Source of the DNA: a virus
Taxonomy: Duplodnaviria > Heunggongvirae > Uroviricota > Caudoviricetes
Virus record (IMG/VR): IMGVR_UViG_3300002641_000714
DNA: 64,000 nucleotides
Direction: 5' to 3' (one strand)
The translations under genes were made by a program, and so were the position numbers. A model generated the notes under the pieces. It was not told the origin of the DNA, did no database searches, and saw only the letters and a list, made by a program, of their open reading frames with translations. Below are positions 3,455 to 60,069 of this stretch, one piece after another; within the stretch, counting starts at the first letter, position 1; each line of letters opens with the position of its first letter.

Positions 3455-3910
3455 ATGACATCTGATAGTGAAACCAAATTGCGATCAATATATTCAAATT
3501 TAAAAAATTATTATATATTAGATGTATAGTCTTTTATAAAAAGTTTAAATTTAGATATGTCAAAAGCAAGTAGTATTTTTATTATCAATGATGAAATTTA
3601 GTCATTAATGACATAGCAATTAAATCTTAAAAAATATAAAGGTGTTATATATATTAATAAACATTTATCAAAAGATTTATTTAATTCTTTTAAATATCAA
3701 TTTAAAAAGGATGGTAATGATATTAGAATAGTACTTATTGATAATGGACAGTTTCCAAAACATTAGGATATAATGGATGTTTTTGATGAAGTTATTTTTT
3801 ATGACAGATTTAAGAAAAATAAAATTGTAGAATTTAATGGATTTGAAAAAAATTCTAATGATATTATTAATAGTATAGATATGGATGAAAATAATTTGTA
3901 TAATGAATAA
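3455..3910 (+). CDS. Hypothetical protein whose gene contains 5 in-frame TAG codons (read as Gln)
   Basis: ATG at 3455. A 152-codon frame with no TAA or TGA but 5 TAGs (3527, 3599, 3614, 3764 and one more). Translation is protein-like (MTSDSETKLRSIYSNLKNYYILDVQSF...). The TAA stop overlaps the next ATG (taATGg at 3908-3912). Missed by the standard-code ORF track. Confidence 0.55.
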
Positions 3911-5304
3911 TGGAAGATGATATATCAATTGGTAGTTTAGACACATTAAATAGTTTACAATCACTAGAAGAACAACAAGATATTTAGCCGGATTTATCAA
4001 AAGTTTAGGAATTACTTGCTAATATTAATACAAATGTTGAATAGGTTAAAGGTATTTCATTTAACCCAGATGGTTCATATGTTGTTAAACAAAGTAAAAC
4101 TCTTCGACAATTAATGGCGATGGTTCAGCAATGGTGGCATATGGTTTGTAATTTAAAAAATATTGATTTTTCTGATTTAAATAATTATGTTGAAGAACAG
4201 CCTGAAGAAAATGGAACAGTTTCTATTAATGCAATGGTTTATATGAATGCTGCTTTTGATATGTATGGTCGTGCATATAGACAAGGTATGGTATGCCCAA
4301 TATGCGGAAAGAAAGCAAGATATTTACCGCCGGGTGGATATTGCTCTACAAAATGTTTACTTCAGGCTGCCAAAAATAAATCACTTGCATTTTTAATGGC
4401 ACCTAATGAAAAATATAAAAGTTTATAGCAAACAGTTAATCAATTATACGGCATTTTAAAACATACGAATTTAATTATTAATGCATTAGTAATGATTCCA
4501 GATATTATTAGAGAATTGGGGTCATTTCCAATTGAATATCGAAATTTTGTTCAATGCAAAATTGCTGAAGGTTTTACAGATTTACAATGTTTAATATAGG
4601 AAGCAATGGTTTATAAAACACAATTATTGCAAAAAATGTTAAAACCCGTTATGACTGGTGTTATTGCAAAACCTGTAGCAACAGGAATGCAAACAATTAA
4701 TTTAATTGTACAATCATTACAAATTGCATAGGAGGCTTTTTAGATTGCATATGACACTATTAAAATTATTATAGATAGATTATCTATTCCAGAAATAGCA
4801 CCGGGATTGGTTATTCCCGCATAGTCACATGCATGGGCATTAACACCTAGATCATTTATTTGCCCTACATTTCCGCCAACGGGAACACCTGATTTAGGTA
4901 AAATATTTGTTATTTTACCAGGCGCAATGAAAAGTCCGCTATACCCTTCATCATTACAAAGTATTAATACATAGTCAATTGATGAAATTGTATAGAAATT
5001 ATTTCCACCATTAACACCAGCTGATTATTATTTAGAACCTGAATTATTCCAAATACGATATTTATTTAGTGATCAAAGCGATTTGGTATCATCTGTAATA
5101 TAGCAATTAGAAGATTTATTAAGATTTGGCCCAGATTATATTCCGGCTTTTGAAAATTTATTACCTGTTAAAGCATATACTGTTAATGGTGATAATGTAT
5201 ATCTTCCAAATGTCGCTTATATATGGTTTGTTTTAGGCCTACTTGATTCGTGGGCACCACATAGTATGGCATTAGTTGGAAATATATTTAATCCAACTGC
5301 ATAA
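3910..5304 (+). CDS. Hypothetical protein (464 aa) with a CxxC...C zinc-ribbon-like segment and 13 in-frame TAG codons
   Basis: I translated it by hand from ATG 3910 to TAA 5302-5304 in one frame. The track's ORF 4114..4428 is an internal fragment bounded by TAGs. There is a TGA stop immediately upstream (3904-3906). Contains GMVCPICGKKARYLPPGGYCSTKC. Confidence 0.6.
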
Positions 5305-11695: not shown

Positions 11696-11847
11696 ATATC
11701 TTTTAAATTATTTTTTATTATTTAATTATTATAAATCTTTATAAAATAATGTTTCAAATTTTACAGTAAAAATGAGTAAAATTTTTCATTTTGCCCATTT
11801 TCTTTTTAATTAAAAATAAATATATTACAAAATAATACATAGTAAAA

Positions 11848-13035
11848 ATGAATAAAAAGATAATATATGAATCTATAATGAGTTTAGTTGCTAAACAAGT
11901 AAAAAATGTGCTTAATGAGTATAGAACTGCCGCACCTGAACATAATATAGATATAACAGATCTTAAACAATTTTTAAAAATGACTATACAGGAATGGATT
12001 TATAAAAAATTTACATCTATTCCAAATTTAACAAATAGATTTTATAGTTTTACATATGAACCTTATGGCAAATTGACTCTTTATATTGGTTCGGTATATT
12101 CAAATCAACCTATAAAACTAACAATTTCTCCTTAGCTTGGTTATTATAATATTAGAGAAGATTTGTAGAAAATTCAAGAATATATTAAAAAACATAAAGA
12201 ATTTAAAATTATATCTTCTAAAATTCAAACATTATAGCAAATACAAGTTGAATATAATTTTAAAAAGGATGATGATTTACAACTTGCACTGGCAGATGCC
12301 GAAAGAAAATTTGATATGGAAGTTGATGCAACTGATACTGATGAATATGCGCCAACAGTAAGAGACTGGATGAAAATGATTGATTATAAAAATAGACATT
12401 CAAATCCAGAAAGAGTTGCAAATTCATGTAAAGATAATAATAAAATAGTTGCCAGATATATTATTGCAAATACATTAGGATGGAAAGAAGCAGTTAAAGC
12501 ATTTAAAGATAGAATATATGATTTGAATATATTAAATGATGCACAGCTTGAAGCATATAGAAGAAAATATGCAACATATAATATACCTGAAGATATAAAA
12601 GAATTAATAGTTGATCTTCAAGAATATGATGAAAAGGGTGGTTTTGGAGAAACAGAACATTCTGAAATATTTCCTGAAAATCTTAAAAAATATATACATT
12701 AGAATAATAATATTAATTCTTATAAAATTGAATTAATTGATGGGGCTCCAGTTAAAGAACATAGAACACAAAGACATAGAATTGATGCACATCATTATGA
12801 TTATCATTCAGATACAGTTCCTCAAGGAACTATTGATCAGGCTAAAGTAACTTTTAAGCTTTTTGATAATTCTGAAGTAGAATTATATTATGTATATAGA
12901 AAAAAGAATGGAAATTATGTTGGACGTTTTTATAAAAGCAAAATTATATTATATGATTGGGATGAATATAGACGGTTATTTAATGCAACATCTGCTGTTC
13001 ATACATTAAAATGGTGTTTTGATGAAGAAGATTAA
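11848..13035 (+). CDS. Leader-family-2 protein (395 aa) with 4 in-frame TAG codons
   Basis: N-terminal MNKKIIYESIMSLVAKQVKNVLNE leader. The track ORFs 11848..12135 and 12316..12702 share one frame and are joined through TAGs at 12133, 12166, 12235 and 12700. Ends TAA at 13033-13035. The late-type motif aaaaataaatatatta is upstream (11812-11828). Confidence 0.6.
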
Positions 13036-21939: not shown

Positions 21940-23046
21940 TTAATTAGTTTCCATTAAATATGCTTTAATAAATTCATCAATATTTCCATTCATAACAGAA
22001 TCTACATCAGAAGTTTGATAATTTGTTCGATGATCTTTTACACGTTTATCATCAAAAACATAACTTCTAATTTGTGCGCCCCAGCCAATTGGCATCTTTT
22101 TATTTTCTATTTCTGCTTGAACTTGACGACGTTTTTCAAGCTCTAATTCATATAATTGGCTGCGCAAATGTTGCATTGCAATTTCTCTGTTTTTCGGTTG
22201 GTCTCTTGATTCTGTACTTTCTGCTACCAATTCATCTTCCTGTCCGGTTAACGGATTAATAAACTTATAATGAAGTCTTACCCCAGATTCAACTTTATTT
22301 ACATTCTGCCCGCCTGCGCCAGAAGATCTAAATGTATCCATTGTAATATTTGCAGGATTAATATTAACTTCAATAGAGTCATCTACTAATGGACATACAA
22401 ATACACTTGCAAAACTTGTCATACGTTTTCCTTGTGCATTATATGGACTTACCCGCACTAATCTGTGTATACCTGTTTCTCCTTTAAGATGGCCATATGC
22501 AAAATCTCCATATACATTAAATGAAACAGTTTTAATTCCTGCAGTATCGCCTTTTTGATAGTTTGTTATTTCTCCTGTAAAATTGTGATTTGCAAAATAA
22601 GATAGATACATTCGCATTAACATTTCGGCCCAATCTTGTGCTTCAGTTCCACCTGCTCCAGCCACAATTTTTAAAACTGCAGGCATTTTATCCTCATCAT
22701 TATTTAGCATTGTTTGCATTTCATATTTAGAAATCGTTTCTAAACATGTATTATATAATGATTTGGACTCCTCTTGAGACAATTCTTCATCAGATAACAA
22801 TTCTAAATAAGTAATGTTATCATCAGTTAAATTAATATCATATAGCAAGTTAGATAAATTTTTCCAATCTTTCGAAATTTTTTCTGCCATTTTTGCATCA
22901 TTCCAAAAAGCTGGATCATGCATTCGCATATTCAACTCATTTTCTTGATTCTTTTTATCTTCAAAATGGATACAATTTTTTAAATATTCAAATCGCTTTC
23001 GAAGTTCTTTAACATTAATATTTGAATTTAACATTTTCATTCCCAT
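21940..23046 (-). CDS. prfB: Class-I peptide chain release factor, RF2-like
   Basis: Has the GGQ motif (SSGAGGQNVNKVESGVRL). The tripeptide anticodon region reads RLVRVSPYNAQGKRMTSF (SPF-like SPY, not the PxT of RF1). Continuous ORF with no +1 frameshift site. Confidence 0.8.
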   Translation of the reverse strand: MGMKMLNSNINVKELRKRFEYLKNCIHFEDKKNQENELNMRMHDPAFWNDAKMAEKISKDWKNLSNLLYDINLTDDNITYLELLSDEELSQEESKSLYNTCLETISKYEMQTMLNNDEDKMPAVLKIVAGAGGTEAQDWAEMLMRMYLSYFANHNFTGEITNYQKGDTAGIKTVSFNVYGDFAYGHLKGETGIHRLVRVSPYNAQGKRMTSFASVFVCPLVDDSIEVNINPANITMDTFRSSGAGGQNVNKVESGVRLHYKFINPLTGQEDELVAESTESRDQPKNREIAMQHLRSQLYELELEKRRQVQAEIENKKMPIGWGAQIRSYVFDDKRVKDHRTNYQTSDVDSVMNGNIDEFIKAYLMETN

Positions 23047-26556: not shown

Positions 26557-27723
26557 TCACTTTTTGATATTCAAATCATGAAAACATTGTTGAATTTCTG
26601 TTTCATCTCCCATTACCTTTCCGGCATCATCGCTCACTTTAATGCAATGAACCCATGGACTATTTGCATTCATTCTGCATTGCATTAATTTCATTACAAT
26701 ATTCTGGCTTGGCGTATTCGTATCACATGTAAGGTTTGTTCCAATGCCAGCTGAACATTTAATTTTGCCTTTACAATAATCAGCAATCTCTTTATATTTC
26801 GGAAATGTCAATGCATTTGAAAATACAATAGTTTTATCTTTAGGATCAATTCCCTTAGCTTTGTATGCATCAATTACCATCTGTGTATATTCATATTCAT
26901 CTCCCGAATCATGACGAACACCATCAAATAATTTTGCATGTTTCATTGTAAATGTATCAAAGAATGCTTTAGAACCATATGTATCAGTTAATGCAATTCC
27001 AAGATTTCCATCATAAACAGAAACCCAGTCTTCATATGATTTATAATTCGCATTTCGATAACCAAATTGTGCTGCATGGAACATAATCCATTCATGTGCG
27101 ACAGTTCCAATAGGTTTCATACCATACTTCATTGCAAGATGAACATTGGATGTTCCTACACAATAAAGCGCATTTTCTTTAAGACGTTTTACTACAGCAT
27201 CTTGAACATTATAGCTAAAACGGCGGCGGGTACCAAACTCACTAAATACCAAGCTATACTCATTTGACAATGCAATCTTTGCATCAAGCCGTTTCAACAT
27301 ATCTGCCATATTAATTATATGAACACGATTTGATACTTCGGAAACAATAGCAAGACATGCAATTTCCCAAAAAGTCAGACGATATAATTTATCGGTTGCC
27401 TCGATATGAAGAATTTTATTATCATCAAGATATACCTTAACTTTACTTGCATCAAATCTAAAACCGCGAAGCCACTCCCAGTAAAATTCAGGAATATAAG
27501 GAATATGTTTTACGCACCAATTAAACTCATCTTCTGTTAAATACAAATCCTCAAGTTTTTTAATTTCATTAAGGATTTGTTCTACGTCAGATTGTGTCCG
27601 TTTAACTCGATTACGATCACAAAACTCAAATACTCCTTCAGCTTCAGGATAAAGCTTCATATATGCATAACTCATACTGAGTTTATACAAATCTGTATCT
27701 AAAATACTTTTAATTACTCCCAT
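26557..27723 (-). CDS. pncB: Nicotinate phosphoribosyltransferase
   Basis: ILDTDLYKLSM, FSEFGTRRRFS, GTSNVHLAMKYGMKPIGTVAHEW, LGIALTDTYG, RHDSGD and SAGIGTNLTCD all match E. coli PncB blocks. Confidence 0.85.
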   Translation of the reverse strand: MGVIKSILDTDLYKLSMSYAYMKLYPEAEGVFEFCDRNRVKRTQSDVEQILNEIKKLEDLYLTEDEFNWCVKHIPYIPEFYWEWLRGFRFDASKVKVYLDDNKILHIEATDKLYRLTFWEIACLAIVSEVSNRVHIINMADMLKRLDAKIALSNEYSLVFSEFGTRRRFSYNVQDAVVKRLKENALYCVGTSNVHLAMKYGMKPIGTVAHEWIMFHAAQFGYRNANYKSYEDWVSVYDGNLGIALTDTYGSKAFFDTFTMKHAKLFDGVRHDSGDEYEYTQMVIDAYKAKGIDPKDKTIVFSNALTFPKYKEIADYCKGKIKCSAGIGTNLTCDTNTPSQNIVMKLMQCRMNANSPWVHCIKVSDDAGKVMGDETEIQQCFHDLNIKK

Positions 27724-27731
27724 AAATCACT

Positions 27732-28415
27732 TTATTTAAATTGTTTTTCTTTTAATGCATTCAATTCATTTTCAACTTTTTTAAGTTGTATTTTTGCATT
27801 CTCAGCTTTACGTATAATTTTATTTAACTGCTTTATTTTATGTGTTAATTCACTAACACGATATTCATATATTTCAGTTTTTATTTTATTAATATACTTA
27901 TCAAACTCATCAAGTTTGTATCCAACAACCTGCATATTTACATTAATGCCCAAATCACATGAATGATCCAATACAATATCTTGAAAATACTTGAATTCCA
28001 TCCGTTCTATATAATCACTACCATATAGCCATTTATTTCCAAAATATTTTTCAGTATAATAATAGCCAACAAAAATTGGTTCTGTGCATTCAACATTTAT
28101 AAATTTATATGTTGTGTGCAATTTGTCAGCTTCATTATTGCTATTTTTATATATTGACCATATATCACTTGTTAGATTATTCTTAATAATATCTGCTGAA
28201 ATACCAGTAACAAGACTTACATATTTGCAAAATGCATTTACGTCATTTTCTCGTTCTTTAATATATAAATCTATATGTTTTTTACCACTAATAATAAATC
28301 CATGTCCACAAACAGGAGGCATGTAGTTATATATAAACTCTTTAATATATGGACATAAATCTTTTGGAGAAAATGCCGCAAAATTTTTAGGATCGACTTC
28401 AATTAAATTTTCCAT
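27732..28415 (-). CDS. Hypothetical protein with a C-terminal coiled coil
   Basis: 227-aa ORF with a TAA stop. Confidence 0.55.
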   Translation of the reverse strand: MENLIEVDPKNFAAFSPKDLCPYIKEFIYNYMPPVCGHGFIISGKKHIDLYIKERENDVNAFCKYVSLVTGISADIIKNNLTSDIWSIYKNSNNEADKLHTTYKFINVECTEPIFVGYYYTEKYFGNKWLYGSDYIERMEFKYFQDIVLDHSCDLGINVNMQVVGYKLDEFDKYINKIKTEIYEYRVSELTHKIKQLNKIIRKAENAKIQLKKVENELNALKEKQFK

Positions 28416-28458
28416 TATTAACTTTAATTTTTAAAATTTATAATGTTTACTAATGTTT

Positions 28459-28719
28459 TTAAATTAAACCAATATGAGTACCACAAACCAAACAATCCCT
28501 ACTATACCATCCGCAACCTGTTGGTGTATCAATAAAAATATGAAATTTACATTCGCCATTTTTATTATAATATTCCAAAGCTTCTTCAACTTCTTTTTGT
28601 GTTGCCTCACGTACAGTAGAACCGCCACATTGGCAATGCACATACGTATCATTTTCAGAACACCGCGCTGAAATAATTTGTTTAGTTCTATTTGATATTT
28701 CTACAAATCCTTTTAACAT
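28459..28719 (-). CDS. Small Cys-rich protein
   Basis: 86 aa with multiple Cys pairs (CQCGG, CLVCG). TAA stop. Confidence 0.45.
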   Translation of the reverse strand: MLKGFVEISNRTKQIISARCSENDTYVHCQCGGSTVREATQKEVEEALEYYNKNGECKFHIFIDTPTGCGWYSRDCLVCGTHIGLI

Positions 28720-28742
28720 AATATTAATTTTTACTTAAAAAT

Positions 28743-29018
28743 CTACACATAAATGACTTTGTATATTGTATGCCAAGTTTTTCTTCGTGTCAATACATAA
28801 TATTTACGACGTTCTTTAACATAATAACAATCCTTAATATAATGTGCATCACCATCATTAATAACAGTGGTTTTTCCATTAACCCGAATCATTTCACCTG
28901 GCAATGGCACACGAGTTGCATATGTATGCCACTTTAGCTCTTTGTTAAAAAACTTTGCAATTTCTTTTGCAGTCATTACATACTTTGTAATTTTTACAGG
29001 AATAACTTCATAACCCAT
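28743..29018 (-). CDS. Hypothetical protein
   Basis: Internal start MGYEVIP avoids overlap with the cca gene. The stop is TAG, with 3 further codons to a TAA. Confidence 0.4.
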   Translation of the reverse strand: MGYEVIPVKITKYVMTAKEIAKFFNKELKWHTYATRVPLPGEMIRVNGKTTVINDGDAHYIKDCYYVKERRKYYVLTRRKTWHTIYKVIYV

Positions 29019-29022
29019 ACTT

Positions 29023-30480
29023 TTAAAATTTATAATGTTCATCAATATACTTATATAATGCATCTGGTGTATTCTCAACAATATTATCAAGAACTGCATC
29101 TTTAATAAGTTGTTTAATTTCACCGACTTGCCGACTTGGTGTCAAATGATAACGAATCATAATATCATCTCCAGATACACATGGTTGGAACAATCGCACA
29201 TAATCTTTTTGCTTAAGATCTTCAATACGTTGTTTCAATTCATCATATTGTTTCCAGAAATTTTTCTTCTTCTCTTCATGTTTCGTTGTAATATCGGCTT
29301 TTGCCAAAATTAACAACTCATCAATATAACCATTTGCATCATGAACAAGACGACGTACAGCAGCATCAGTTACACCCTCATCACAAATTGCTTGAGGCCT
29401 CATATGCATACGAACCATAGTCTCTACAAAGTCCATATTTTCATCCAGAGGCATCTTCATGCGGCTGAATATAGATTTTATCATCTTAGCTCCTACATAT
29501 TCGTGGTTGTCAAAAGACCAGCCTTTATGAGCATTCCAAGATCTGGTTTTCATTTTACCAATATCATGAAATAATGCGGCAATACGAAGCCATACATTAT
29601 CAGACTGTTTAGTAACATTGTCAAGTACATGCAAAGTATGCCAGAAAATATTTTTGTGGCCACGTACATACTCAGATACAGTTGAAGCTCTGGTAGTATC
29701 CATTTCTACCAATTCTGGTAAAAACTTTTTAAGTAAACCAAAATTTTTCAGAATTTCAATTCCGTCTTTTGCATGATTAGATGCCATGATTTTCATAAAC
29801 TCTGTAGTAATTCGCTCAGCAGAAATAATATCAAGACGATCTACATTTCGTATAATTCCATCTTGAGTTTTCTGATCAATTCCGAAATCAAGCTTGCACA
29901 TAAAACGAACAGCCCGAAGCATACGTAGTGGGTCATCACTGAATGTAGTATCAGGATCTACAGGAGTCCGAATAATTTTATTCTTCAGATCTTCAATTCC
30001 GTTAAACGGATCAACCAACTCACCAAAATGTTCAGCATTAAGTTGAATAGCCATAGCATTAATTGTAAAATCACGGCGAAGCTGATCATCTTCAAGAGTT
30101 CCATCCTCTACAATAGGTTTACGAGAACCACGTTCATATGATTCTTTACGAGCACCGACAAATTCTACTTCCCAATTTCCAAAATGAACCTGGGCTGTAC
30201 CAAAGTTTTCAAATATTGATAATTTAATATTGTCAAAATTTGATTCCCTTTTCAAATATTCTGTAAAAGCCTCTGCAATTTTCTGTCCCTTTCCGACTAC
30301 CACAACGTCAATATCATCATTGGGCCTGCCAAGAATTAAATCACGAACATAACCGCCGACAACATAACATGGATATTGTAAAGTGTCAGCAACCTTCTGA
30401 ATATTGCAAAGAACTCCAAAAATATCTGGAGTTTTTTGAATTTCTTTTAGAATTGTATTTTTATCAAATTGTGTTAACAT
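29023..30480 (-). CDS. cca: CCA-adding tRNA nucleotidyltransferase with an HD domain
   Basis: GGYVRDLILGRPNDDIDVVV and RRDFTINAMA (class-II nucleotidyltransferase head) plus HD-domain motifs HTLHVLD and HDIGK. Confidence 0.8.
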   Translation of the reverse strand: MLTQFDKNTILKEIQKTPDIFGVLCNIQKVADTLQYPCYVVGGYVRDLILGRPNDDIDVVVVGKGQKIAEAFTEYLKRESNFDNIKLSIFENFGTAQVHFGNWEVEFVGARKESYERGSRKPIVEDGTLEDDQLRRDFTINAMAIQLNAEHFGELVDPFNGIEDLKNKIIRTPVDPDTTFSDDPLRMLRAVRFMCKLDFGIDQKTQDGIIRNVDRLDIISAERITTEFMKIMASNHAKDGIEILKNFGLLKKFLPELVEMDTTRASTVSEYVRGHKNIFWHTLHVLDNVTKQSDNVWLRIAALFHDIGKMKTRSWNAHKGWSFDNHEYVGAKMIKSIFSRMKMPLDENMDFVETMVRMHMRPQAICDEGVTDAAVRRLVHDANGYIDELLILAKADITTKHEEKKKNFWKQYDELKQRIEDLKQKDYVRLFQPCVSGDDIMIRYHLTPSRQVGEIKQLIKDAVLDNIVENTPDALYKYIDEHYKF

Positions 30481-30526
30481 ATTAAATTATAATTAATTTT
30501 TGTAATTTGTTTCTGTATATGTTTAA

Positions 30527-30766
30527 TTAATCACATTTATATTCGTTAATTAACTCATCAAGATTATAAAATACAACTCTTCCATCACATGGCTGATAAA
30601 ATCGTACATCAATTAAATATGTATATTTTAATGTACAATTTATATCATTCATTTCATCTGCAACTATTCTTGAATATAGTGAACCTCCCATTGTATTAAA
30701 TAGTTCAGATTTCTTTTTTAATTCACAAAGTAAATCATAAATATCTTTTTTGTTTTCTATATTCAT
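30527..30766 (-). CDS. Hypothetical protein
   Basis: 79-aa ORF with a TAA stop. Confidence 0.45.
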   Translation of the reverse strand: MNIENKKDIYDLLCELKKKSELFNTMGGSLYSRIVADEMNDINCTLKYTYLIDVRFYQPCDGRVVFYNLDELINEYKCD

Positions 30767-30776
30767 AATTATAATA

Positions 30777-30829
30777 TTTTTAAATTCGATGCAAAATTAA
30801 TACTTTTTTCTTAAATTAAAAAATAGAAG
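30777..30829 (-). promoter_or_regulatory. Conserved early/middle promoter-like motif
   Basis: ttttaaattcgatgcaaaattaatacttttttcttaaattaaaaaatagaag. Confidence 0.55.
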
Positions 30830-30832
30830 TCA

Positions 30833-31441
30833 TTAATACATATTATGATTTAATAGAAGCTTTACAACTTTAGGCAATTTCTTAATATTTTCCTGATCAT
30901 AACCTGCAAATGCAAAATGTTTATAGTATTCTGGTTCATTTCCGAATCCACAAATAATATTAGTTATTTTAATTTCACTGTCGGCAATCATCATACAACC
31001 GTCTATATCAGTTACATCTATATATTTTGTACCAGCAGGAACTTCTACAATACCGATTGCTGGATAATGAGAGGTTTTTGTAAAATGTGCAATATTATAA
31101 AGAATATTACTAAAGATGTTTGCACTGTTATCAGTCATTTGAAAATCAAATACCAATGGCATCTCTTGCAAGCAATTTCCACATTTGATAGTAATTGCAT
31201 CATTACTATTATTATCTTCATCATACAATTTCAAATCATGAAATTTAACATTGCCATGCAAATATTTAGCATTAACCGTTCTAAACATTCCAGTTGGCCA
31301 ATAATGATGAAGAAGAATATCTCCATAAATGTCAATTTCCAATGGAATTGCATACTTACAAGTTTCTTTAGTTGTTTGAAGTTTTTTAAGTTCTTTTGTG
31401 GTGAAAACTTCTTGTTCTCCAAATGTTTTAATTGTTGCCAT
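30833..31441 (-). CDS. Hypothetical protein
   Basis: 202-aa ORF with a TAA stop. Confidence 0.55.
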   Translation of the reverse strand: MATIKTFGEQEVFTTKELKKLQTTKETCKYAIPLEIDIYGDILLHHYWPTGMFRTVNAKYLHGNVKFHDLKLYDEDNNSNDAITIKCGNCLQEMPLVFDFQMTDNSANIFSNILYNIAHFTKTSHYPAIGIVEVPAGTKYIDVTDIDGCMMIADSEIKITNIICGFGNEPEYYKHFAFAGYDQENIKKLPKVVKLLLNHNMY

Positions 31442-31453
31442 AGTTGATATTAT

Positions 31454-31505
31454 TTTTAATTACGATGCAAAATTAATACTTTTTATTTAAATTAAAAAAT
31501 AGAAG
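31454..31505 (-). promoter_or_regulatory. Conserved early/middle promoter-like motif
   Basis: ttttaattacgatgcaaaattaatactttttatttaaattaaaaaatagaag. Confidence 0.55.
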
Positions 31506-31570
31506 TTAATAAAATATCAAAAAACACTACCTAAAATTAGGTAGTGTTATATTATCTATTAATTATTTCA

Positions 31571-32395
31571 TTATCGTCTAATATTCCACATATGTTGGGA
31601 AGAACCATCAAACAATACATCAATATTTGCGCCTTGCTTTTGTTCAATAATAGACCATGCACGTAATTGAATATATTGATCCGGAGACAAATTCATTTCA
31701 CGCATATACGCTTTATCAGCTTTTGCACGTTGTTTTTCCGCTGATTCTCGAACAGTTTCCATTTCTTTTAAACGTTCTTGAGTTTTAGTTTTCTGAATAG
31801 CAGCCGCGGTAAGATTCATTTCTTTCTTTTGTTCCTCATTAGGACTAGCTTTTCCTGTTGTGACAGAAATAATTCTAATTGGCATATCAGCATCTTGTGA
31901 TTTATACTCGACATATTTACGCATATATTCTAATACAATAGAGTCAATTTTTGCATTTACTTCACGATTAGAAATCAAATCGAATGGGCTATACAATGAA
32001 ACACAATCCCTTACTTTATTTCGATAAACCTGTTGAATATTATTTTTATACCAATCGCTTCCATAATTTTGTAATAGAATTGGTGTTTTACCTTTCTCAA
32101 CCTGTATAACAATATATGTGCTAAAATCCAAAGGTGTATTATCATTTGAAAAAATATCATCAAATGTTTCATCATATTGTACTGGAACAATTTTAAACGG
32201 AACACCATATGTAGTTACTGCACACCATTCCAGACCGGTACTAACAGGTGATTTATCTACACCACCATGGCCAAAAAACCAGGGTTGCATAACAAGTACA
32301 GCTTCCTCATCAGCGTTAACCTCTACTGAATGACATGAAGACAAAGTAAACATTGCAAATACTGCAATACTGAAAAAATAAAAAATTTTCTTCAT
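31571..32395 (-). CDS. Lipoprotein with an SPFH/band-7-like coiled region
   Basis: Signal peptide plus lipobox (FTLSSC). TAA stop. Confidence 0.5.
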   Translation of the reverse strand: MKKIFYFFSIAVFAMFTLSSCHSVEVNADEEAVLVMQPWFFGHGGVDKSPVSTGLEWCAVTTYGVPFKIVPVQYDETFDDIFSNDNTPLDFSTYIVIQVEKGKTPILLQNYGSDWYKNNIQQVYRNKVRDCVSLYSPFDLISNREVNAKIDSIVLEYMRKYVEYKSQDADMPIRIISVTTGKASPNEEQKKEMNLTAAAIQKTKTQERLKEMETVRESAEKQRAKADKAYMREMNLSPDQYIQLRAWSIIEQKQGANIDVLFDGSSQHMWNIRR

Positions 32396-32418
32396 AATTA
32401 AAATAAATTTTATTGTTT

Positions 32419-33081
32419 TTAAATAATATTAATTTGACATGATTTCATTACTTCAAGTGCAGCTTTGTGTTTTTCTGGAGTAACTCCAGCACAACATTTG
32501 CTATCCACTGTAATCTCTGCAAAATTATATGTATATGCTTTAAGAATAAGTGCATTAGAAACTACACAAATATCTGTACAGAATCCACACATTTCAATTT
32601 CCATTGGAATATAATTAATATGCCCATTATTTTTAATAATATGATTAATAAATCCATTGTTTTTAATATGTTGAAATGTTCGGTCTTTTTCAAAATTTAA
32701 AACGGTGTCTTTAAGAGTTGATGCAATTTCACCATCTTCAATATAAACTGGATCAACAGAACCAAATGTATTTTTACGAATATATTTAATTTCACATCCT
32801 TGTTTAGCTTTTACTAAGACTGCTTGATAAATAGATTCTTCAATTCGCCACCCTTCACTATTGACCATACAATGTTCAACCGGAAGTTTTTTACCTTCTG
32901 ATGTATCAAGATAATCAAAATAATGAGTGTCCATTGTTAGATAAATTGCATCACCATCAAATGATAAAATTTTGTCAACAATATTTAGAACTGCTTTTTG
33001 AGCATCTTTATTTGCTAATGTGCCAGTAATAAAATCATTCTGTGCATCAACTACTACTAAAACTTTAATCTTATTTTCCAT
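32419..33081 (-). CDS. pncA: Nicotinamidase (isochorismatase family)
   Basis: VLVVVDAQNDFITG and HCMVNSEGWRI match E. coli PncA (LLLVDLQNDF, HCVQNSEGAQL). Catalytic-Cys block IEMCGFCTDICV. Confidence 0.8.
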   Translation of the reverse strand: MENKIKVLVVVDAQNDFITGTLANKDAQKAVLNIVDKILSFDGDAIYLTMDTHYFDYLDTSEGKKLPVEHCMVNSEGWRIEESIYQAVLVKAKQGCEIKYIRKNTFGSVDPVYIEDGEIASTLKDTVLNFEKDRTFQHIKNNGFINHIIKNNGHINYIPMEIEMCGFCTDICVVSNALILKAYTYNFAEITVDSKCCAGVTPEKHKAALEVMKSCQINII

Positions 33082-36632: not shown

Positions 36633-38552
36633 TTAAAGTCCTACGCAGTTTACATAGAATGTAATATATTGTGTTTCAGGATAGAAACCTGCATCTACAA
36701 GAGCGTAACGAGATTTAATCATAAGTTTTGGAGCCATTGTACCTTCAGCGATAATACGTACAACTTCAGCCATTACATATGGGCAGAAGTGAACACCTGG
36801 TTCATCTTTACCACCTTTACGACCAACTAATACACGAGTATCATTAGCTTTCATCAATGGATCAACGTAAACAGTTAAACCGCAAACAGTACCGATTGGG
36901 TAAAGTTGACCAGCAGTTTGTTTAACAGTATTCTCAATTGGTGAGAAGCTATAGTGTGCATCAGATTGTAACAATGTAGCAACACGGATATTAGTTACAA
37001 CGAATGTAGCAGCACCGTAACGACCACGTTGTTGGATCCAGTTAGAAGCAGCTAAGATGTTTGTGAAGATTCTCTTGATAAGAGTGTCACGGTTCTCGAA
37101 GTTAGCACCTTCAATAACACCCATTGGAAGTACTGGTATGCTAACCATTCTTTGAGAAGCATAACGTTGTTCTTGTTCAAGATATTCACCTTCTGGAATT
37201 GCATATGTAGCCCAGTCAAGATTACTAGGATTTTCTGCATCGAATTTTCTGAAGTTTAAGTTTAAGCATGCGCCAAGACCTTCAACTTCTACCATACGAG
37301 CGTGGTTTTTCCAACCAAGAGCAAACAAACGAGATGTGATGTGACGGTTGATAGTTTGAGAAAGTTCGTTTACACCAGCATTCTCAACAATCTTTAATAC
37401 ATCAATACCCCATTGTTTTTGGAGGTCAGTAACTTGTTCTTGAGTTACAGCACAAGCAACTTGGATAGTACCAACTTGGATGTTCTTTGTGAAGAGTTGT
37501 AATGAGATTTGACGAGCAGGAGTCATTTCACCTGTTGCACGGCTCATTGGTTCAAAAAGAACAGTACCATCTTGATATGTACCAGCCCATGCATCTTCAT
37601 CATGGTCACCAGCACCAGCAAAACCAAGAAGTTGATCCTCTAACATAGAGATTAATTTAGCACCTCTAACTGTAAGAGTAATTGCAGGAGTTTCACTTAC
37701 AAGTTCAACATCCTTTAAGAATGTTTCACCAAGAGATTGGTCGCCATCAACAACTTTGAACATTGGATCACCATCAATACGGCTCCAACCAATAAATTCA
37801 ACTGTAAGATGTTTATCAGCATCCTCAAATCTTACACCAGCTTTTAAACCAGCTTGTTCAAGCTCATATTTGTATTTAACAACTGGATCTGAACCTTGTG
37901 GAACAAGAACAGCTTTAAATGCATGTGGAAGTCCATAAAGACGGAAAGCAGCTGCGCCATTAATTGGTTTTTCTTCATTTGGCCAATTCTCTGGGAATGC
38001 TTTTGTAGAAGAATCAACAGCCATACGACGTTTGTTATAAACATGTGGATTAGCGCTGAATCTATCATATGCAGGAGTTGCACCATATGGTTGTTTGCTA
38101 CCGCTATATACATAGTCCATATAAGGAAGAACACCACTAGGACCTGCAAGAGGAGTAGTATTTACAAGTTCAAAACCAATAGTTTTAGCAGCAACCTTCA
38201 TTGCTAATGGAAGAAGTGCAGGGAATTTGTCACCTGAACCAAGAATTTTATCATCAGCCTATTGTGCGCCGGTCATTGCAGCCATTTTAGGAGCAACTAC
38301 ATTACCAACACCAAGAGTATTGTAAAGGTTGTTATATGGAGCATATGCACCACCGAACTCTGAGAATGCGTTAGCACCCATTTCAGGAGCAGATTCATTT
38401 AAGGATTTAGCTGTGTTGTGAGCAAGTTGACTCATCCAAGCAAGCTTTTCTGGATCCTTAACACCAGTTGTACGAGTAATCATTGGAGCCCAAGCTTCAT
38501 TGATCATTTGCTCTGCATTTTTAGCAGTAGCTTTTTGATTGTTTACTTTCAT
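36633..38552 (-). CDS. Putative major capsid protein (639 aa, 1 in-frame TAG)
   Basis: The track ORFs 38259..38552 and 36633..38201 share one frame ((38552-36633+1)/3=640) and are joined through the TAG at 38259-38261. The region is visibly more GC-rich with biased codons (ggt, gca, aac, ttc, atc), as expected for a highly expressed structural gene. The Gly/Ala-rich N-terminus is typical of processed capsid proteins. The late-type motif is upstream. The functional call is tentative. Confidence 0.5.
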
Positions 38553-38822
38553 ATTATTTTTTATAATTATTTTTTATTTAGTGTGTTATCTATAAAAAAG
38601 ATAACGGATAATCATTTTTCTAAATCTTTAATTAATCTTAATCATTTAATATGTCTATTTCGTAAATTTATTTTCTCTATACTAATAAATCTCTAAAATG
38701 AACGAGATGTGTTTTTGTTTCTTACATTACTCTTTCATATTAATTAAGACAGAAAGATAATTATATTTGTATTTTATTTATTTATTTTCTTAAAAAATGT
38801 TAAAAATGCAAAAATGCATATT

Positions 38823-39551: not shown

Positions 39552-39661
39552 GTTTTATTGATATTTTGTTGATTAACATTCTTTCTTTTATTATTTATTA
39601 AAGAATTAAAAATAAAAATTTTATTTTTTAATAATATATAAAATTTAATAAATATATTGAT

Positions 39662-40483
39662 ATGAAAAACTATAAACAAATATTAGAAGCAATTAATCGT
39701 GGTATTAAATTTGCATTAGACGATTTTGAAGATCAAGATGATATTCAAGGTTAGGATAATAGTAAAGTTAAGTATAAAGGCGGAATTAAAGACTGGTTAG
39801 ATTTAATGAGTGATGTTGTTGATTTAGGACTACCTTCAGGAACTCTTTGGTGCAAGTATAATTTGGGATGTGAAACTGAATTATTAAATGAAGAAGGTGA
39901 AAATAGTGTAGCTGATTGGTGGCAAGGTGATTATTTTGCCTGGGGTATTAATCAGCATAATGATTTTTTTACATGGGGGTCTTATGATTATTCAGACTGG
40001 GCTATAAAAATGTTGCCTAATTTAAAAACAGAAAATTGGGTTCTTAAATTATTTAAATATTGTTATGAAAAAGATACAGTTGCATCTATATGTGATGAAC
40101 CTGATAATAAAATGAAACTTGATTTGGAAGATGATGCAGCTTATGTAAAAAATAACAAATACTGCATACCGTCTACAGAACAATTTCAAGAATTATTAGA
40201 TAATACAAAACATAAATTTGTTGCAAATTATAATAATATTTCCGGACTAAACGGTATATTATTTGCATCTATCTATAATCAAAATACAATATTTTTTCCG
40301 CTTGCAGGTTATATGAATGAAGAAAATATCAGAAGAAAAAATACACAAGGTTTTTATTGGACATGTGATTTAAGCCCAAAATATCAAACATGCGCAAATT
40401 CATTTAATTTAACAAAGAAAACAGTAGAAGTTGGAAGTTATAGACGTGACCAAGGTTGTTCAATAAGGCCTGTATTAAAATAG
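39662..40483 (+). CDS. Leader-family-1 protein A with a DUF1566-like domain (1 in-frame TAG)
   Basis: ATG at 39662. Leader MKNYKQILEAINRGIKFALDDFEDQDDIQG, then TAG (39752-39754) exactly where paralogs E and F have Gln (QGQ), then DVVDLGLPSGTLWCKYNLG, YFAWG, IPSTEQFQELL and a C-terminal SIRPVLK. Confidence 0.65.
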
Positions 40484-40501
40484 TAAAAAAAACTCTAAAA
40501 T

Positions 40502-41354: not shown

Positions 41355-42554
41355 ATGAAAAACTATAATAAAATATTAGAAGCTGTTAATAGAGGAATTA
41401 AATTTGCATTAGATGACTTTGATGATAATGAACTTCAAGGTCAAGTTAGCGGTAAAATCAATAATAAAAGTAATCTTAAAGATTGGCTTGAGTGGCAAGA
41501 ATGGATTAAAAAAATTGAAGCTAGAAGTTTAAAAACAGTAAAAGATATATAGGAATTAGCAGATTTTTCAAAATCAAGCAGATTTAAATATGAGGTTGGG
41601 AATAACCGTAATTTATTAATATCTTTAATTAATTATATAATTGAAATTGATTCAACTGCTGATTTAAACTGGATTGACGTATCTAAAATAACAGATATGA
41701 CACAATTATTTGATAATAGTAAATTTAATGGTAATATATCTGAATGGGATGTGTCTAATGTTGTAACAATGCGTCAAATGTTTATATTTTCTCATTTTAA
41801 TGGTAATATATCTAATTGGAATGTATCTAATGTTAAAGATATGCATAATATGTTCAGATGCTCTTATTTTAATGGTGATATATCTAATTGGAATGTATCT
41901 AATGTTAAAAATATGTCTGGTATGTTTAAAGATACATTTAATTTTAATAAACCATTAAATAATTGGAATGTTTCTGGTGTTGAAAATATGAGTGAAATGT
42001 TTCACGGATCTAGAAGATTTAATCAACCACTTAATAATTGGAATGTTTCTAATGTTAAAGATATGGCACAAATATTCTGTAATTGTAAATTTAATCAAGA
42101 TATTAATAATTGGGATGTTTCTAATGTGGAAGATATGCGTTGTATGTTTATGCAAAATCAATATTTTAATAAACCGCTTAATAATTGGAATGTTTCTAAT
42201 GTTAAAATGTTTGCAAGTATGTTTTGCGCATCTATATTTAATTAGCCGATTGGAAAATGGAATATGTCTAAAGCAATATCTCTTAGTGGAATGTTTAAGG
42301 GTTCAAGATTTAATTAGAATATTAATAATTGGAATGTTTCTGGTGTAAAATAGATGCATGAAATGTTTTGTAATTCCCGTTTTAATAAACCATTAGATAA
42401 ATGGAATGTTAGCAATGTTTGGGATATGGAATACATGTTTCAATCATCACAATTTAATCAAGATATATCAATGTGGAATATAAATCCTAATGTAAAAACA
42501 ATTTGTATATTTAAAGATGCTGTTATATAGAAAGAATATAAACCAAAAGTATTA
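41355..42554 (+). CDS. Leader-family-1 protein C with about 10 DUF285-like repeats (5 in-frame TAGs)
   Basis: Leader with QGQ (CAA). The track fragments 41355..41552 and 41697..42245 are in the same frame. Repeats have the form FNGNISNWNVSNVKDMHNMF. TAGs fall at repeat positions that are Q in sister repeats (FN-TAG-PIG vs FNQPL). TAA at 42552-42554. Confidence 0.65.
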
Positions 42555-42564
42555 AGAAAATATA

Positions 42565-43501
42565 AATGATAAATTATAAACAAATATTAGAAGCGGTTAA
42601 CAGAGGTATTAAATTTGCTTTAGATGACTTTGAAGATCAAGAAGATATTCAAGGTTAGATTAATAGTAAGGTTAATAATAAAAGTAATATTAAAGAATAT
42701 TTAGAATGGAATAAATGTCTTGATTTATTATTTAAGAATGTTGATACTAATTATTTTAATAAAATGGTTAAATTATCAAAAATAATTGGTATACAATATA
42801 AAGTTAATGATATAGATACATTAAAAAATATTATAAATTGGTCTTGCCAGATATGTCCGAATAATGATGCAAATTTAAATTGGTTAGATGTTTCTGAATT
42901 AACATCAATGTATGGTTTATTTGGAAATGATTATACTAAAAATTTTAATGGTGATATTTCTAAATGGGATGTATCTAATGTTGAAGATATGAATTATATG
43001 TTTTATAAAAGCAATTTTAATGGTAATATTTCTAAATGGGATGTGTCAAAAGTTAAACATATGAATTATATGTTTTCACACTCTATATTTAATGGTGATA
43101 TTTCTAATTGGAATGTATCAAAAGTTGAAACTATGATTGGTATGTTTAAAGAAGTTAGACCATATGATTACCCATTGGATAATTGGGATGTATCTAATGT
43201 TAAAAATATGTCTGACATGTTTAGTGATTCATGGTTTAACCAACCATTAAATAATTGGGATGTATCTGGTGTTGAAAATATGGCACATATGTTTTCTGGC
43301 TCACAATATGATTAGCCATTAGATAAATGGGATGTATCTAATGTTAAAAATATGGATTCAATGTTTTCTGCATCTCATTTCAGACAAAATATTAGTAATT
43401 GGAATATTAGTAAAGACTGTAATACTAATAATATGTGGAGATTAGGCATGTAGTATGATATTAATAAACCGCCAAAAACAAGATTAAGATATAGACGTTA
43501 A
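42565..43501 (+). pseudogene. Leader-family-1 paralog D, frameshifted in its leader, with a DUF285-repeat body
   Basis: From ATG 42565 the sequence MINYKQILEAVN is followed by an extra C (gttaacCagaggt at about 42600) that puts RGIKFALDDFEDQEDIQG-TAG-... and the repeat body (track ORF 42764..43315, read on through a TAG to the TAA at 43499-43501) in the +1 frame. This is a sequencing error, a pseudogene, or expression from the internal start at 42764. Confidence 0.4.
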
Positions 43502-57209: not shown

Positions 57210-57980
57210 TTACAAATTTATTACTGGACGAATTGGAAGCCCTTTGTAACGAGCGCACTAAGCACAAAAAATTTCAGGTTTTAATTTATTAGTATTAAAA
57301 TTTAATGTCATGCCATATTGCATATTATTAATTTTAGAATTAATAACTGTATTAGTCCAATAATTTCCATTTGTAGGATATTCATTTACATCTTTTTCTC
57401 CACATTTTTTACATGCTGGAAAAAATAATTCATTACCATTTTTCCCTATAAATAACCAGCCATCTAAATAATATACATTTCTATATTTTTCAACTGGTTT
57501 ATTTATTGTATTTTTTATTAATTCATTAAACTATTCAGGTGTTGGTATGCAAAACTTTAAATTACTATTCTAATACGCAGCATCATCTTCAGATAGTAAT
57601 GTATTTAAATTATCTTTATTATTATATTTAGTTAATTCTTTTCCAAATTTATATGTTTCCCATGAATATTCTGGCTTTGTCCCTAATTCTGTTTCACCCC
57701 AAGCAAAGTAATCACCATACCAATCTAAATATGTAGTATAATAAGGATCTTTATTTAAAAACCTCCAATCACACCCAAGATTATATTTACACCAAAGAGT
57801 TCCTGAAGGAAGTCCAAGATCAACTACTTCATTCATTAAATCTAACCATTCTTTAGTTCCACCTTTATACTTAACTTTACTACTAGTTTGACCTTGAATA
57901 TCATCTTGATCTTCAAAATCATCTAAAGCAAACTTAATGCCTCTATTAACAGCTTCTAATATTTTATTATAGTTTTTCAT
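57210..57980 (-). CDS. Leader-family-1 protein E with a DUF1566-like domain (3 in-frame TAGs)
   Basis: The track ORF 57570..57980 (leader with QGQ, DLGLPSGTLWCKYNLG, YFAWGE) ends at a TAG. Read-through gives ...CIPTPEQFNELIKNT... and the family C-terminus GLPIRPVINL, with a TAA at 57210-57212. Confidence 0.6.
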
Positions 57981-59959
57981 ATATTATTAATATCTTCCTT
58001 ATTTACAACAGCTCTTATTTGTAATCCAACACATCTATCAATATCTTTAATTGACGGTTTTACATTTTTGAATATATTTAATTCATATGCCATGTATTCT
58101 TTACCTTTAATATTTTCACATGCCCAATAATAACCGCCATATTTATAGATACTTAATTTATCTTTTTCCATAATATTTGTATATGGCATAAATAATTTTT
58201 CTTTATTAATTTTACTGATAAATGTAATACCGTTTAATCCTGTAATTCCTTGATAATCCTATTCAAATTTTATTTTAGTATTTTTTAATAATTCTTCAAA
58301 TTGTGCTTTTGATGGAATACAAAAATTAAAATTAAAAGATTTAGTTAATTTTTGAACAGCTGCATCATCATCTGGTATAAGCGTATTTAATTTATCAAAT
58401 CTGACATTATATTTAGGATTATTACCATATTTAGTTAATTTATCCCATGCACCGTTTGCATACTTATAAGTTGTCCAATCATATTGTGCTTTTGGTTCCA
58501 ATTCACCCCAAGCATAATAATTACCTATCCAATCTTTAGCATTATCTAATTTATCAATATTAACACCTAAATTATATTTGTGCCATAATGTTCCTGAAGG
58601 CAATCCTAAATCAACAACTTCTTTCTTTATATCTAAATATTCTTTCCAACTACCTTTATAATGGTTTGTTTTACTGCTAGATTGACCTTGAAGTTCTTCA
58701 TCATTATCAAAATCATCTAAAGCAAAACGAACATTATTATAATTAAATGATTCATTTAAATTTACTTTATTTTGATATGGACGTAATGTTACTTGCATTA
58801 TATAACATACTGTTGGAAATAAATTTTTCCATAAATAATTTTTGGGATCTGTTTTCTTTTTAAGATCAAATACGACAGGATCATTATTATTTAAAATAAA
58901 ATTAATATATAATTTCTTATTTTCAGCAAAATTAACTGTAAAATAAAAACCAAAATCAGTTTTTTCTAATCCAGTAATTTCAATAGTATCAACTAATGCA
59001 TCTTTTAATAATAATGTTCTTGTAATATTTTTATAAATTAATTTTTCATATTCTTTATTAAAATAGTCAAGTGCAAGATCAATACGTTTTTCTCTTGGCA
59101 CCGGTAAACGTCCAAGTGAATCTGTTTCTTCTCGGAAATATGTATATGGTATCATTAAAAAATGTAAATTCTAAATATATGTATTATATTCATTAATTTG
59201 TTCATTATATTCATCTATTTCATTTTCCGGATGATTGTTTATTTCTGCATAATTACGATTATCTTGCAAATCATCAACTAATTTTTGATAATGCTACTGT
59301 AATTTATAAAATTCTATATATTTTTTATTACTTTCACCTGTATTATATTTGTCATAACAATCATTTATAAAATCAACTAAATATTGTTCAAGATCCATTT
59401 TTATTTCATAGGTATCTTCTAATAACTTATTTTCAATTCCAATTTTATTATTTTCTTTGCTTTGTAATGAATTAGAATTTAAACTGTATTTTAATTCATA
59501 ATATTTTTTAACAGATTGATAACGTTCTAATAATGTTTTATCATTAGAAGACAAATCCAAACAATCTCTTGATTTAATATTAATTGTTGCCGCATTTTGT
59601 TTAATATATTGTGTAAATGTAGAACGTGTCTGAATTGTATTTTCTAAATATTCTAATAGATATTTAATAAAATTTTTAGGTTCATACATTAAAAATGATT
59701 CAAGATCCTGATACTTCTATGCACCATTTATCATTCCATAAAAATCATGAATATCATTTTGAGTATATTTAGTTTTATTATTTCTTAAATATTGAAGATA
59801 ACTATATATTTTTTTAATAATATTTTCAGATTTACCGCATTTTTCTTTTGGTAAACCATATTTTAAACCTACTTCTAATTTTTCTGATTTAGAAGGAACC
59901 TAATCTTTGATATGTAATAAATCTTGTCTAACTTCAAATTCTGAAATTTTATTTTCCAT
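57977..59959 (-). CDS. Leader-family-1 protein F: long N-terminal extension, internal leader remnant, DUF1566-like domain (about 5 in-frame TAGs)
   Basis: Track fragments 59294..59689, 58259..59155 and 57977..58189 are co-linear in one frame, and the frame stays open further upstream to an ATG at about 59959. Contains ...NVRFALDDFDNDEELQGQSS...VVDLGLPSGTLWHKYNLG...YYAWGE...CIPSKAQFEELL...ITGLNGITF...GLQIRAVV. Its TGA (57977-57979) overlaps the ATG of gene E. My coordinates are within about 1 nt. Confidence 0.5.
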
Positions 59960-60001
59960 AATTTTATATATACATTTCTATTCAATATATTTATTAAAAC
60001 A

Positions 60002-60029
60002 AATGACTCTAGAAAAATCTAGAGTCATT
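60002..60029 (-). terminator. Terminator hairpin after the gp32-like gene
   Basis: Perfect 12-bp stem aatgactctaga / tctagagtcatt with a 4-nt loop. On the minus strand it is followed by ttgtttt and then the late-type motif of gene F. Confidence 0.6.
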
Positions 60030-60069
60030 CTTAAAAGAAGAATTTACTTATAATAATTACTCATCATAA

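Follow-up and report, generated by a model that had tools for sequence, protein, structure and literature searches.

Why a phage should carry the two enzymes that open the Preiss–Handler route to nicotinamide adenine dinucleotide (NAD+) is the question raised by a stretch of viral DNA of 64,000 nucleotides (IMG/VR record IMGVR_UViG_3300002641_000714; this whole stretch is called the window below). Two of its genes, pncA and pncB, appear to encode a nicotinamidase and a nicotinate phosphoribosyltransferase. PncA hydrolyses nicotinamide with water to nicotinate and ammonia, and PncB joins nicotinate with phosphoribosyl pyrophosphate (PRPP), in an ATP-coupled reaction, to give nicotinate mononucleotide (NaMN); NadD then converts NaMN to nicotinate adenine dinucleotide (NaAD), and NadE converts NaAD to NAD+. 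An earlier reading of this DNA, made from the sequence only, had named both enzymes and proposed that they rebuild NAD+ destroyed by bacterial defence. We found that both genes are intact, constrained, and linked to other NAD genes in many phages, and we put at roughly 80% the probability that they are functional auxiliary metabolic genes that keep up or expand the NAD+ pool of the host cell during infection.

Identity of PncB and PncA

By every test, the product of pncB is predicted to be a full-length nicotinate phosphoribosyltransferase (EC 6.3.4.21; TIGR01514 type), and the sequence-only reading had placed the gene on exactly the right coordinates and strand (Table 1). Its two-domain architecture is complete, with Pfam NAPRTase_N (PF17767, residues 8–128, E = 7.6e-28) and the catalytic NAPRTase domain (PF04095, residues 160–379, E = 1.8e-54), and it matches the NCBIfam equivalog TIGR01514 over residues 3–382 (382.6 bits, cut-off 269.55) and NF003704 from end to end (418.9 bits, cut-off 379). 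The top PDB match, over residues 1–387, is 2IM5 (E = 3.7e-102), the closest solved PncB, which comes from Porphyromonas gingivalis of the Bacteroidales. The G-T-x-x-H-E-W motif is kept, GTVAHEW of the phage protein being aligned to GTHPHEW in 2IM5 and GTMAHEW in 1YIR; its histidine is presumably the ATP-dependent autophosphorylation site known from enteric PncB. Matches to NAMPT-type models and to phrog_448 are far weaker, and the equivalog-level scores point to an enzyme that would act on nicotinate rather than nicotinamide.

The product of pncA is a predicted nicotinamidase (EC 3.5.1.19), as judged from its active-site residues and fold. Pfam assigns it the generic domain Isochorismatase (PF00857, 56.7 bits, cut-off 27), and it falls in phrog_19305, which is labelled “unknown function” in PHROGs; its relatives are named “nicotinamidase-related amidase” by JGI, and every match of its sequence in the PDB is a nicotinamidase or a cysteine hydrolase of the PncA type. 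Its identity to solved nicotinamidases is only 14–23%. Residues D12, D51, H53, H70, and C172 are aligned to D10, D52, H54, H71, and C133 of the P. horikoshii enzyme, in which Asp10 is catalytic, Asp52, His54, and His71 are metal ligands, and Cys133 is the nucleophile. The catalytic triad (D12/K103/C172) and the metal site (D51/H53/H70) are both invariant among 46 aligned relatives, which are mostly metagenomic and in many cases come from large phage-like contigs. Since an Asp-x-His...His metal site separates nicotinamidases from the other amidases of this fold, it supports the identity of PncA. The conserved Cys block that the earlier reading had noted in the enzyme corresponds to CGFCTDIC172V, and the triad, the metal site, and the fold agree with that reading.

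An AlphaFold model of PncA, built on the 46-relative alignment, reached a predicted local distance difference test (pLDDT) score of 91.3 and a predicted template modelling (pTM) score of 0.89. When this model was compared with the PDB by Foldseek, ranks 1–28 were all characterised nicotinamidases, among them those of B. subtilis, P. horikoshii, S. pneumoniae, S. mutans, Leishmania, Drosophila, S. aureus, A. baumannii, and M. tuberculosis, with a probability of 1.00 to PncA structures; carbamoylsarcosine, maleamate, triuret, and biuret hydrolases appeared from rank 31 downward. The matches of PncA and PncB lie far beyond chance. The profile searches and the alignment of catalytic residues that had been proposed as checks of the two assignments thus came out in their favour, and the predicted conversion of nicotinamide to nicotinate and then to NaMN is backed by homology, active-site conservation, and the modelled fold.

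PncA of the window also has features of its own. A tandem duplication of 30 nt, private to this gene, falls between the catalytic Lys and Cys, in a surface loop that varies in the family (pLDDT 71–78); relatives of 210 aa lack one of its two units. An intein or foreign insert as the source of the enlargement of about 35 residues was ruled out, the enlargement being a family-wide variable loop plus this one duplication. A CCAG motif further downstream is invariant in the 46 aligned members, and PncA of P. horikoshii has VKGI at this place.

Linkage to other NAD genes in phages

At least seven phage lineages have PncA together with PncB, in most cases accompanied by NadE and in many by NadD, and PncA homologs directly adjoin PncB, NadE, or NAMPT in many phages. 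In IMG/VR, 48 viral contigs carry relatives of PncB, mostly in genomes of 200–400 kb. Such linkage of PncA and PncB with NAD genes in independent phage lineages supports the view that the pair works in the NAD pathway. The gene orders of five relatives are listed in Table 1.

The rest of the pathway can be followed in a sister phage, whose proteins are 82% (PncA), 84% (PncB), 96% (CCA-adding enzyme), 97% (SPFH lipoprotein), and 94% (release factor 2, RF2) identical to those of the window by tblastn. It has been assembled as a contig of 491,091 bp and elsewhere as contigs of 233.5 and 236.7 kb. The contig of 491,091 bp is the longest one with the sister's NadE (P0293) and also carries the sister's PncA (P0004); in sample ERZ27280713, NadE is on a second large contig (~237 kb), not on the one with pncA and pncB. 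NadE is far from the pair in the sister genome, and it stands close to the NAD-dependent DNA ligase LigA.

In two relatives, a TonB-dependent outer-membrane receptor follows pncB directly, and such receptors sit inside phage NAD islands, by NadR and PnuC. This arrangement suggests that the receptor may serve phage-encoded uptake of vitamin B3 precursors across the outer membrane of Bacteroidota.

Selection and divergence

Between the window and the sister phage, PncB has a ratio of nonsynonymous to synonymous substitution rates (dN/dS) of 0.12 and PncA one of 0.27; the ratios of the neighbouring genes are 0.04 (CCA-adding enzyme), 0.03 (SPFH lipoprotein), and 0.09 (RF2), and the first two of these are very strongly conserved. 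The values for pncA and pncB indicate purifying selection on both genes.

Within the clade, PncA and PncB (82–85% identity) are more diverged than the flanking CCA-adding enzyme and SPFH lipoprotein (96–97%). In a more distant relative (L036), PncB is 81% identical to that of the window, and PncA is just ~50–54% identical. The discordant divergence of the two proteins suggests that they may have had separate histories or that gene replacement may have occurred.

The locus and the phage that carries it

The order of genes in the clade of the window is pncA, SPFH lipoprotein, two unannotated open reading frames (ORFs), CCA-adding enzyme, three unannotated ORFs, and pncB, and it is kept in four assemblies, namely the window and the loci L001, L005, and L035. 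Bacterial contamination or misassembly was ruled out, because this order is repeated in four independent assemblies and is flanked by capsid and RF2 genes. The unannotated ORFs between pncA and pncB have no match in Pfam or PHROGs, and PHROG and Pfam searches with seven unannotated ORFs near the pair likewise gave no match and no anti-defence candidate. The intervening genes are context, and nothing ties them to the NAD pathway.

The window has a G+C content of 23–34% and a long array of genes on the minus strand. Pfam scans revealed genes for a T4-type Gp23 capsid protein, tail sheath, gp32, and family B DNA polymerase (PolB), and the window also encodes Rad50- and Mre11-like proteins, a thymidylate-synthase-like protein, PhoH, and a CCA-adding enzyme. 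The phage origin that the sequence-only reading had assumed is supported by the Gp23, tail sheath, gp32, PolB, and RF2 genes. Nucleotide similarity to deposited phages is limited to Prevotella Lak megaphages, at ~72% over ~500 bp; a 20-kb query, compared with GenBank phages by megablast, yielded only two short 72% matches, both to Lak phages, which means that there is no close cultured relative.

TAG is a sense codon in the capsid gene, the tail sheath gene, and several large uncharacterised genes. Release factor 2 does not read UAG, and the in-frame TAGs together with a phage-encoded RF2 mark a TAG-recoded megaphage. No suppressor tRNA was found in the window by ARAGORN. The genes for PncA, PncB, the CCA-adding enzyme, the SPFH lipoprotein, and RF2 are free of TAG, so that pncA and pncB are translatable under either code, that is, before and after the code switch.

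The phage of the window is thus a T4-like gut megaphage with TAG recoding and a distant relative of the Prevotella Lak phages; its probable host is a member of the Bacteroidales. The 25 nt upstream of the pncB, pncA, CCA-adding enzyme, and SPFH genes are A/T-rich and have no Shine–Dalgarno-like purine tract, which is consistent with a host from the Bacteroidota. A host inference from a GTDB scan with PncB was dropped, as the scan returned mostly Desulfobacter-type genes at 37–40% identity, an artefact of exact-peptide seeds. The exact PncB of the window was found on a contig of 74.8 kb and on a contig of 0.2–1 Mb. Beyond the ends of the window, the first gene gave no record at all, and the last gene was found solely on contigs of at most 4.4 kb.

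Elsewhere in the window, a group of paralogous genes has a common N-terminal module (MKNYKQILEAINRGIKFALDDFEDQ.DIQGQ ... VVDLGLPSGTLWCKYNLG) that is near-identical in at least five paralogues, with C-terminal parts that differ. One of them is fused to DUF285 repeats, outside which the paralogues have no Pfam match, and several copies have in-frame TAGs inside or near the common module.

Table 1. Features of the window and of related phage loci. Identities are those of PncB to PncB of the window; x, an intervening gene.
Feature	Sequence	Position	Strand	Details
pncB, predicted nicotinate phosphoribosyltransferase	window	26557..27723	-	388 aa; ATG start, TGA stop; no in-frame TAG
pncA, predicted nicotinamidase	window	32419..33081	-	220 aa; ATG start, TAA stop; no TAG
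30-nt tandem duplication in pncA	window	32608..32667	-	aa 139-158, IKNNGFINHI / IKNNGHINYI; units identical at 25/30 nt
CCAG motif in pncA	window	about 32485..32496		C196-C197-A198-G199
Genes between pncB and pncA	window	27732..32395	-	three unannotated ORFs, CCA-adding enzyme, two unannotated ORFs, SPFH lipoprotein
CCA-adding enzyme with HD domain	window	29023..30480	-	Pfam PolyA_pol, PolyA_pol_RNAbd, HD; TIGR02692 340 bits, below cut-off
SPFH/Band-7 lipoprotein	window	31571..32395	-	Pfam Band_7; phrog_200 lipoprotein; lipoprotein-type signal …LSSC
RF2	window	21940..23046	-	prfB 417 bits, cut-off 370
Gp23 capsid gene	window	about 36633..38573	-	in-frame TAG at 38261; coherent protein sequence on both sides
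Multi-TAG gene	window	3907..5304	+	4-11 in-frame TAGs in each multi-TAG gene
Multi-TAG gene	window	11836..13035	+
Multi-TAG gene	window	41355..42569	+
Multi-TAG gene	window	57977..60043	-	C-terminal third has the common N-terminal module of the paralogues
Paralogue with common N-terminal module	window	39635-40486	+
Paralogue with common N-terminal module	window	40499-41341	+
Paralogue with common N-terminal module	window	42566-43501	+
Paralogue with common N-terminal module	window	57210-57983	-
LigA (692 aa) and NadE	sister phage, L085 (ERZ27280713 k141_563051)	6619-8697 and 10001-10753		1.3 kb apart
PncB and PncA	relative L036	10001-11170 and 9112-9735		81%; PncA-PncB adjacent, NadE 1.5 kb downstream
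PncA-PncB locus	relative L033			62%; NadD, Tad6-family gene, RF, then PncA-PncB-NadE
Tad6-family gene (Pfam; Thoeris anti-defence protein)	relative L033	4426-4728	-	between NadD and the RF...PncA-PncB-NadE block
PncA-PncB locus	relative L032			64%; PncA-x-PncB, TonB-dependent receptor, NadR, PnuC, deoxyribosyltransferase-like, Nudix, NadD, NadE
PncA-PncB locus	relative L034			63%; PncA-x-x-PncB, TonB-dependent receptor
PncA locus	relative L009 (413 kb contig)			PncA with NAMPT-type enzyme and NadE; no PncB within the ±10 kb locus
TonB-dependent outer-membrane receptor	relative L032	11249-13327		Plug + beta-barrel; 644-692 aa in the two relatives; directly after pncB
TonB-dependent outer-membrane receptor	relative L034	4094-6028		Plug + beta-barrel; directly after pncB
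TonB-dependent receptor, weaker match	relative L070	near 12925

Comparison with known systems

Li et al. (2024, Microbiome 12:268, PMC11662467) reported complete salvage or Preiss–Handler pathways in 174 of 668 gut jumbo phages and use the term “NAD-jumbo phage” for any jumbo phage in which one or more NAD+ synthesis pathways are complete. Their work shows a pncB-nadD-nadE cluster (e.g., in Kuafu_71), mentions phage-encoded pncA, and gives Bacteroidota as hosts of the Kuafu clade (PMC11662467). The NAD genes are proposed to supply LigA and similar enzymes and to counter Sir2-type depletion of NAD+, and the authors say that experimental validation is lacking (PMC11662467). The phage of the window is like these phages as a gut jumbo phage or megaphage with a probable Bacteroidota host, a phage pncB, NadE in the sister, and LigA; the genome size of more than 200 kb that goes with the term is found through the sister phage, not in the window's own genome. 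The roles suggested for the genes, NAD supply and counter-defence, also coincide. It is unlike them in that pncA and pncB are unclustered, the sister NadE is on a separate contig of ~237 kb in one assembly, and NadD was not found. The emphasis of that study is also on pncB-nadD-nadE rather than on the pncA entry step.

Similar gene sets are found in phages of other hosts. Bacillus phage G (JN638751) encodes a Nudix protein (gp273), an isochorismatase or PncA-like protein (gp275), a NAPRTase (gp277), NadD (gp281), and NadE (gp283) within 7 kb, and gp275 has been discussed as PncA-like (PMC12484599). Like the phage of the window, it is a megaphage of ~0.5 Mb with a PncA-like and NAPRTase pair in the same pathway; unlike the window, it has all four steps within 7 kb, a long-type NAPRTase of 487 aa that is 27% identical, a PncA of the Firmicute type, a Gram-positive host, and the standard genetic code. 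In the region examined, Sinorhizobium phage Phosso has an annotated NadE as well as PncB, MutT, NMNAT, and a PncA-like hydrolase. In Agrobacterium phage Atu_ph07, PncB adjoins ORFs that resemble PncA and NMNAT and carry the annotation hypothetical. Both are jumbo phages (~470–490 kb) which, like the phage of the window, combine PncB with a PncA-like hydrolase, and both also have a Nudix/ADP-ribose (ADPR) pyrophosphatase and an adenylyltransferase. They are unlike the window in that their PncB is ~29% identical, their genes are clustered, the adenylyltransferase is of the NMNAT rather than the NadD type, and their hosts are alphaproteobacteria. A nicotinamidase is annotated in the gut phage Phass-1 as well.

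The NAD+ reconstitution pathways (NARPs) share with the present pair a phage-encoded conversion of nicotinamide or related pyridines towards NAD+. NARP1 and NARP2, the latter consisting of phage Nampt and Nmnat, were described by Osterman et al. (bioRxiv 10.1101/2024.02.11.579819), and neither this report nor that on NARP3 (PMC13464706) mentions PncA, PncB, or the Preiss–Handler route. PncB and Nampt both match Pfam NAPRTase (PF04095). Unlike NARP2, the deamidated route from nicotinamide through nicotinate, NaMN, and NaAD to NAD+ takes four steps rather than two and requires NadD and NadE; unlike NARP1, NARP2, and NARP3, it uses PncB, a NAPRTase and not a Nampt, and the window lacks Nmnat, Adps/Namat, PnuC, NadR, and Nudix.

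Bacterial salvage genes encode the same two enzymes with the same reactions, and in Desulfobacter loci pncA and pncB are close to each other on opposite strands. Unlike these genes, the present pair is virus-encoded, and its PncA is divergent, with 22–26% identity to the Desulfobacter neighbours, the invariant CCAG, and the enlarged loop.

Gene sets with both PncA and PncB, and the idea that they act in counter-defence, have thus already been described for giant phages, and the window is a further example. The sequence-only reading had supposed that such a pair might be undescribed in phages; this part of it falls, as the gene clusters of phage G, Phosso, and Atu_ph07 and the work of Li et al. 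(PMC11662467) came before.

Function of the pair

The proposed mechanism would begin with deamidation of nicotinamide by PncA as the entry into the Preiss–Handler route, and PncB would take the first committed step from nicotinate and PRPP, coupled to ATP, to NaMN. NaMN would be adenylylated by NadD, either that of the host or a phage copy not yet located, and the final amidation would be carried out by NadE, which in the sister genome is encoded elsewhere, beside the NAD-dependent DNA ligase. As a net effect, the NAD+ pool of the infected cell may be kept or raised from free nicotinamide or nicotinate. A larger pool would serve NAD-consuming enzymes of the phage, and infection may also become more tolerant of NAD+ loss. 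Enzymatic activity, flux to NAD+, and a selective benefit are what we infer here from the identity of the genes, their active sites, and their linkage and constraint.

Several observations weigh against this reading. PncA has no match in NCBIfam at E <= 0.01; pncA and pncB are 4.7 kb apart with unrelated genes between them, unlike the operons of the relatives; and both genes are less constrained than those of the CCA-adding enzyme, the SPFH lipoprotein, and RF2 (dN/dS 0.03–0.09). None of NadD, NadE, NMNAT, Nudix, NadR, PnuC, and NAMPT was found anywhere in the window, whether standard ORFs and translations with TAG read as Gln were scanned with Pfam or phage-derived queries were run by six-frame tblastn. 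No NadD came up in the clade, neither in the window nor in the 20 kb around the sister NadE, so that completion of the pathway rests on a presumed host enzyme. Of the steps from PncA to NadE, the window therefore provides PncA and PncB and the sister phage NadE. The sequence-only reading had the pair feed NadD and NadE of the host, and had suggested a search for both genes elsewhere in the genome. The proposal is right in part only: neither gene is present in the 64 kb of the window, the sister phage encodes its own NadE, and more distant relatives encode both NadD and NadE.

What a maintained or enlarged pool would be for may be answered in two ways, which are not mutually exclusive. The first, to which we give somewhat less than an even chance but which we rate above the second, is a general supply of NAD: exogenous or endogenous niacin would be turned into a larger NAD+ pool for enzymes such as LigA and for the replication of a genome of ~0.5 Mb, with no relation to defence. 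It is favoured by the adjacency of NadE and LigA in the sister genome, by the NAD islands of relatives with PnuC, NadR, and a TonB-dependent receptor, and by the presence of LigA in more than half of the “NAD-jumbo phages” (Li et al., PMC11662467). Jumbo phage PA5oct, moreover, up-regulates the host pncA-pncB1-nadE operon during infection. A point on the other side comes from the chemistry of the ligase. LigA releases nicotinamide mononucleotide (NMN) and AMP, so that its product is not nicotinamide and PncA would be unneeded for its recycling. In addition, sequence data do not separate this supply from counter-defence.

The second answer is dedicated counter-defence, in which the pair would mainly salvage the nicotinamide that TIR, SIR2, or other NADase effectors set free and rebuild NAD+ from it, as a deamidated analogue of NARP1–3. 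We regard it as plausible but less likely than not. Nicotinamide is indeed the product of such NADases, NARP1, NARP2, and NARP3 are experimentally established as phage pathways that reconstitute NAD+, and a Tad6-family gene, encoding a Thoeris inhibitor, stands beside the operon in one relative (L033); Li et al. (PMC11662467) propose counter-defence for the NAD genes of jumbo phages. However, the route takes four steps, uses PRPP and at least two ATP, and discards the ADPR half, and the window has neither NadD nor NadE, nor any recognisable anti-defence gene near the pair; the Pfam and tblastn searches described above found no Tad6 homolog in the window. The sister NadE stands beside LigA, which points to supply for replication, and relatives pair these genes with PnuC and a TonB-dependent receptor, a combination that suggests uptake of vitamin B3 from outside and not the reuse of a defence product. 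In the literature, we found no experiment that tests the PncA/PncB route of a phage.

It is very improbable that the 220-aa protein is another amidase of the isochorismatase family (carbamoylsarcosine, maleamate, or biuret hydrolase) or the product of a decaying gene, so that there would be no PncA–PncB pathway: the generic Pfam domain without an NCBIfam match, the low identity to solved nicotinamidases, the private tandem duplication, and a dN/dS above that of the neighbours would fit such a case, but neither the nicotinamidase-specific metal site nor the triad varies within the family, the first 28 structural matches are nicotinamidases with the other amidases below them, homologs stand directly by PncB, NadE, or NAMPT in many phages, and the duplication is confined to a variable loop.

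Significance

It is possible, though less likely than not, that PncA–PncB(–NadE) of gut megaphages is a fourth route of NAD+ reconstitution, selected for capturing the nicotinamide released by TIR and SIR2 NADases of Bacteroidales. If this were true, the dominant phylum of the human gut would gain its first route of this kind, with a mechanism unlike those of NARP1, NARP2, and NARP3. Li et al. (PMC11662467) have put the idea forward in general terms. Whether a four-step deamidated route can rescue phages from NAD-depleting immunity as NARP1–3 do is a question already posed in the literature. To the phages with an entry of nicotinamide into Preiss–Handler salvage, the window adds a Lak-related, TAG-recoded megaphage lineage in which the genes of the route are dispersed.

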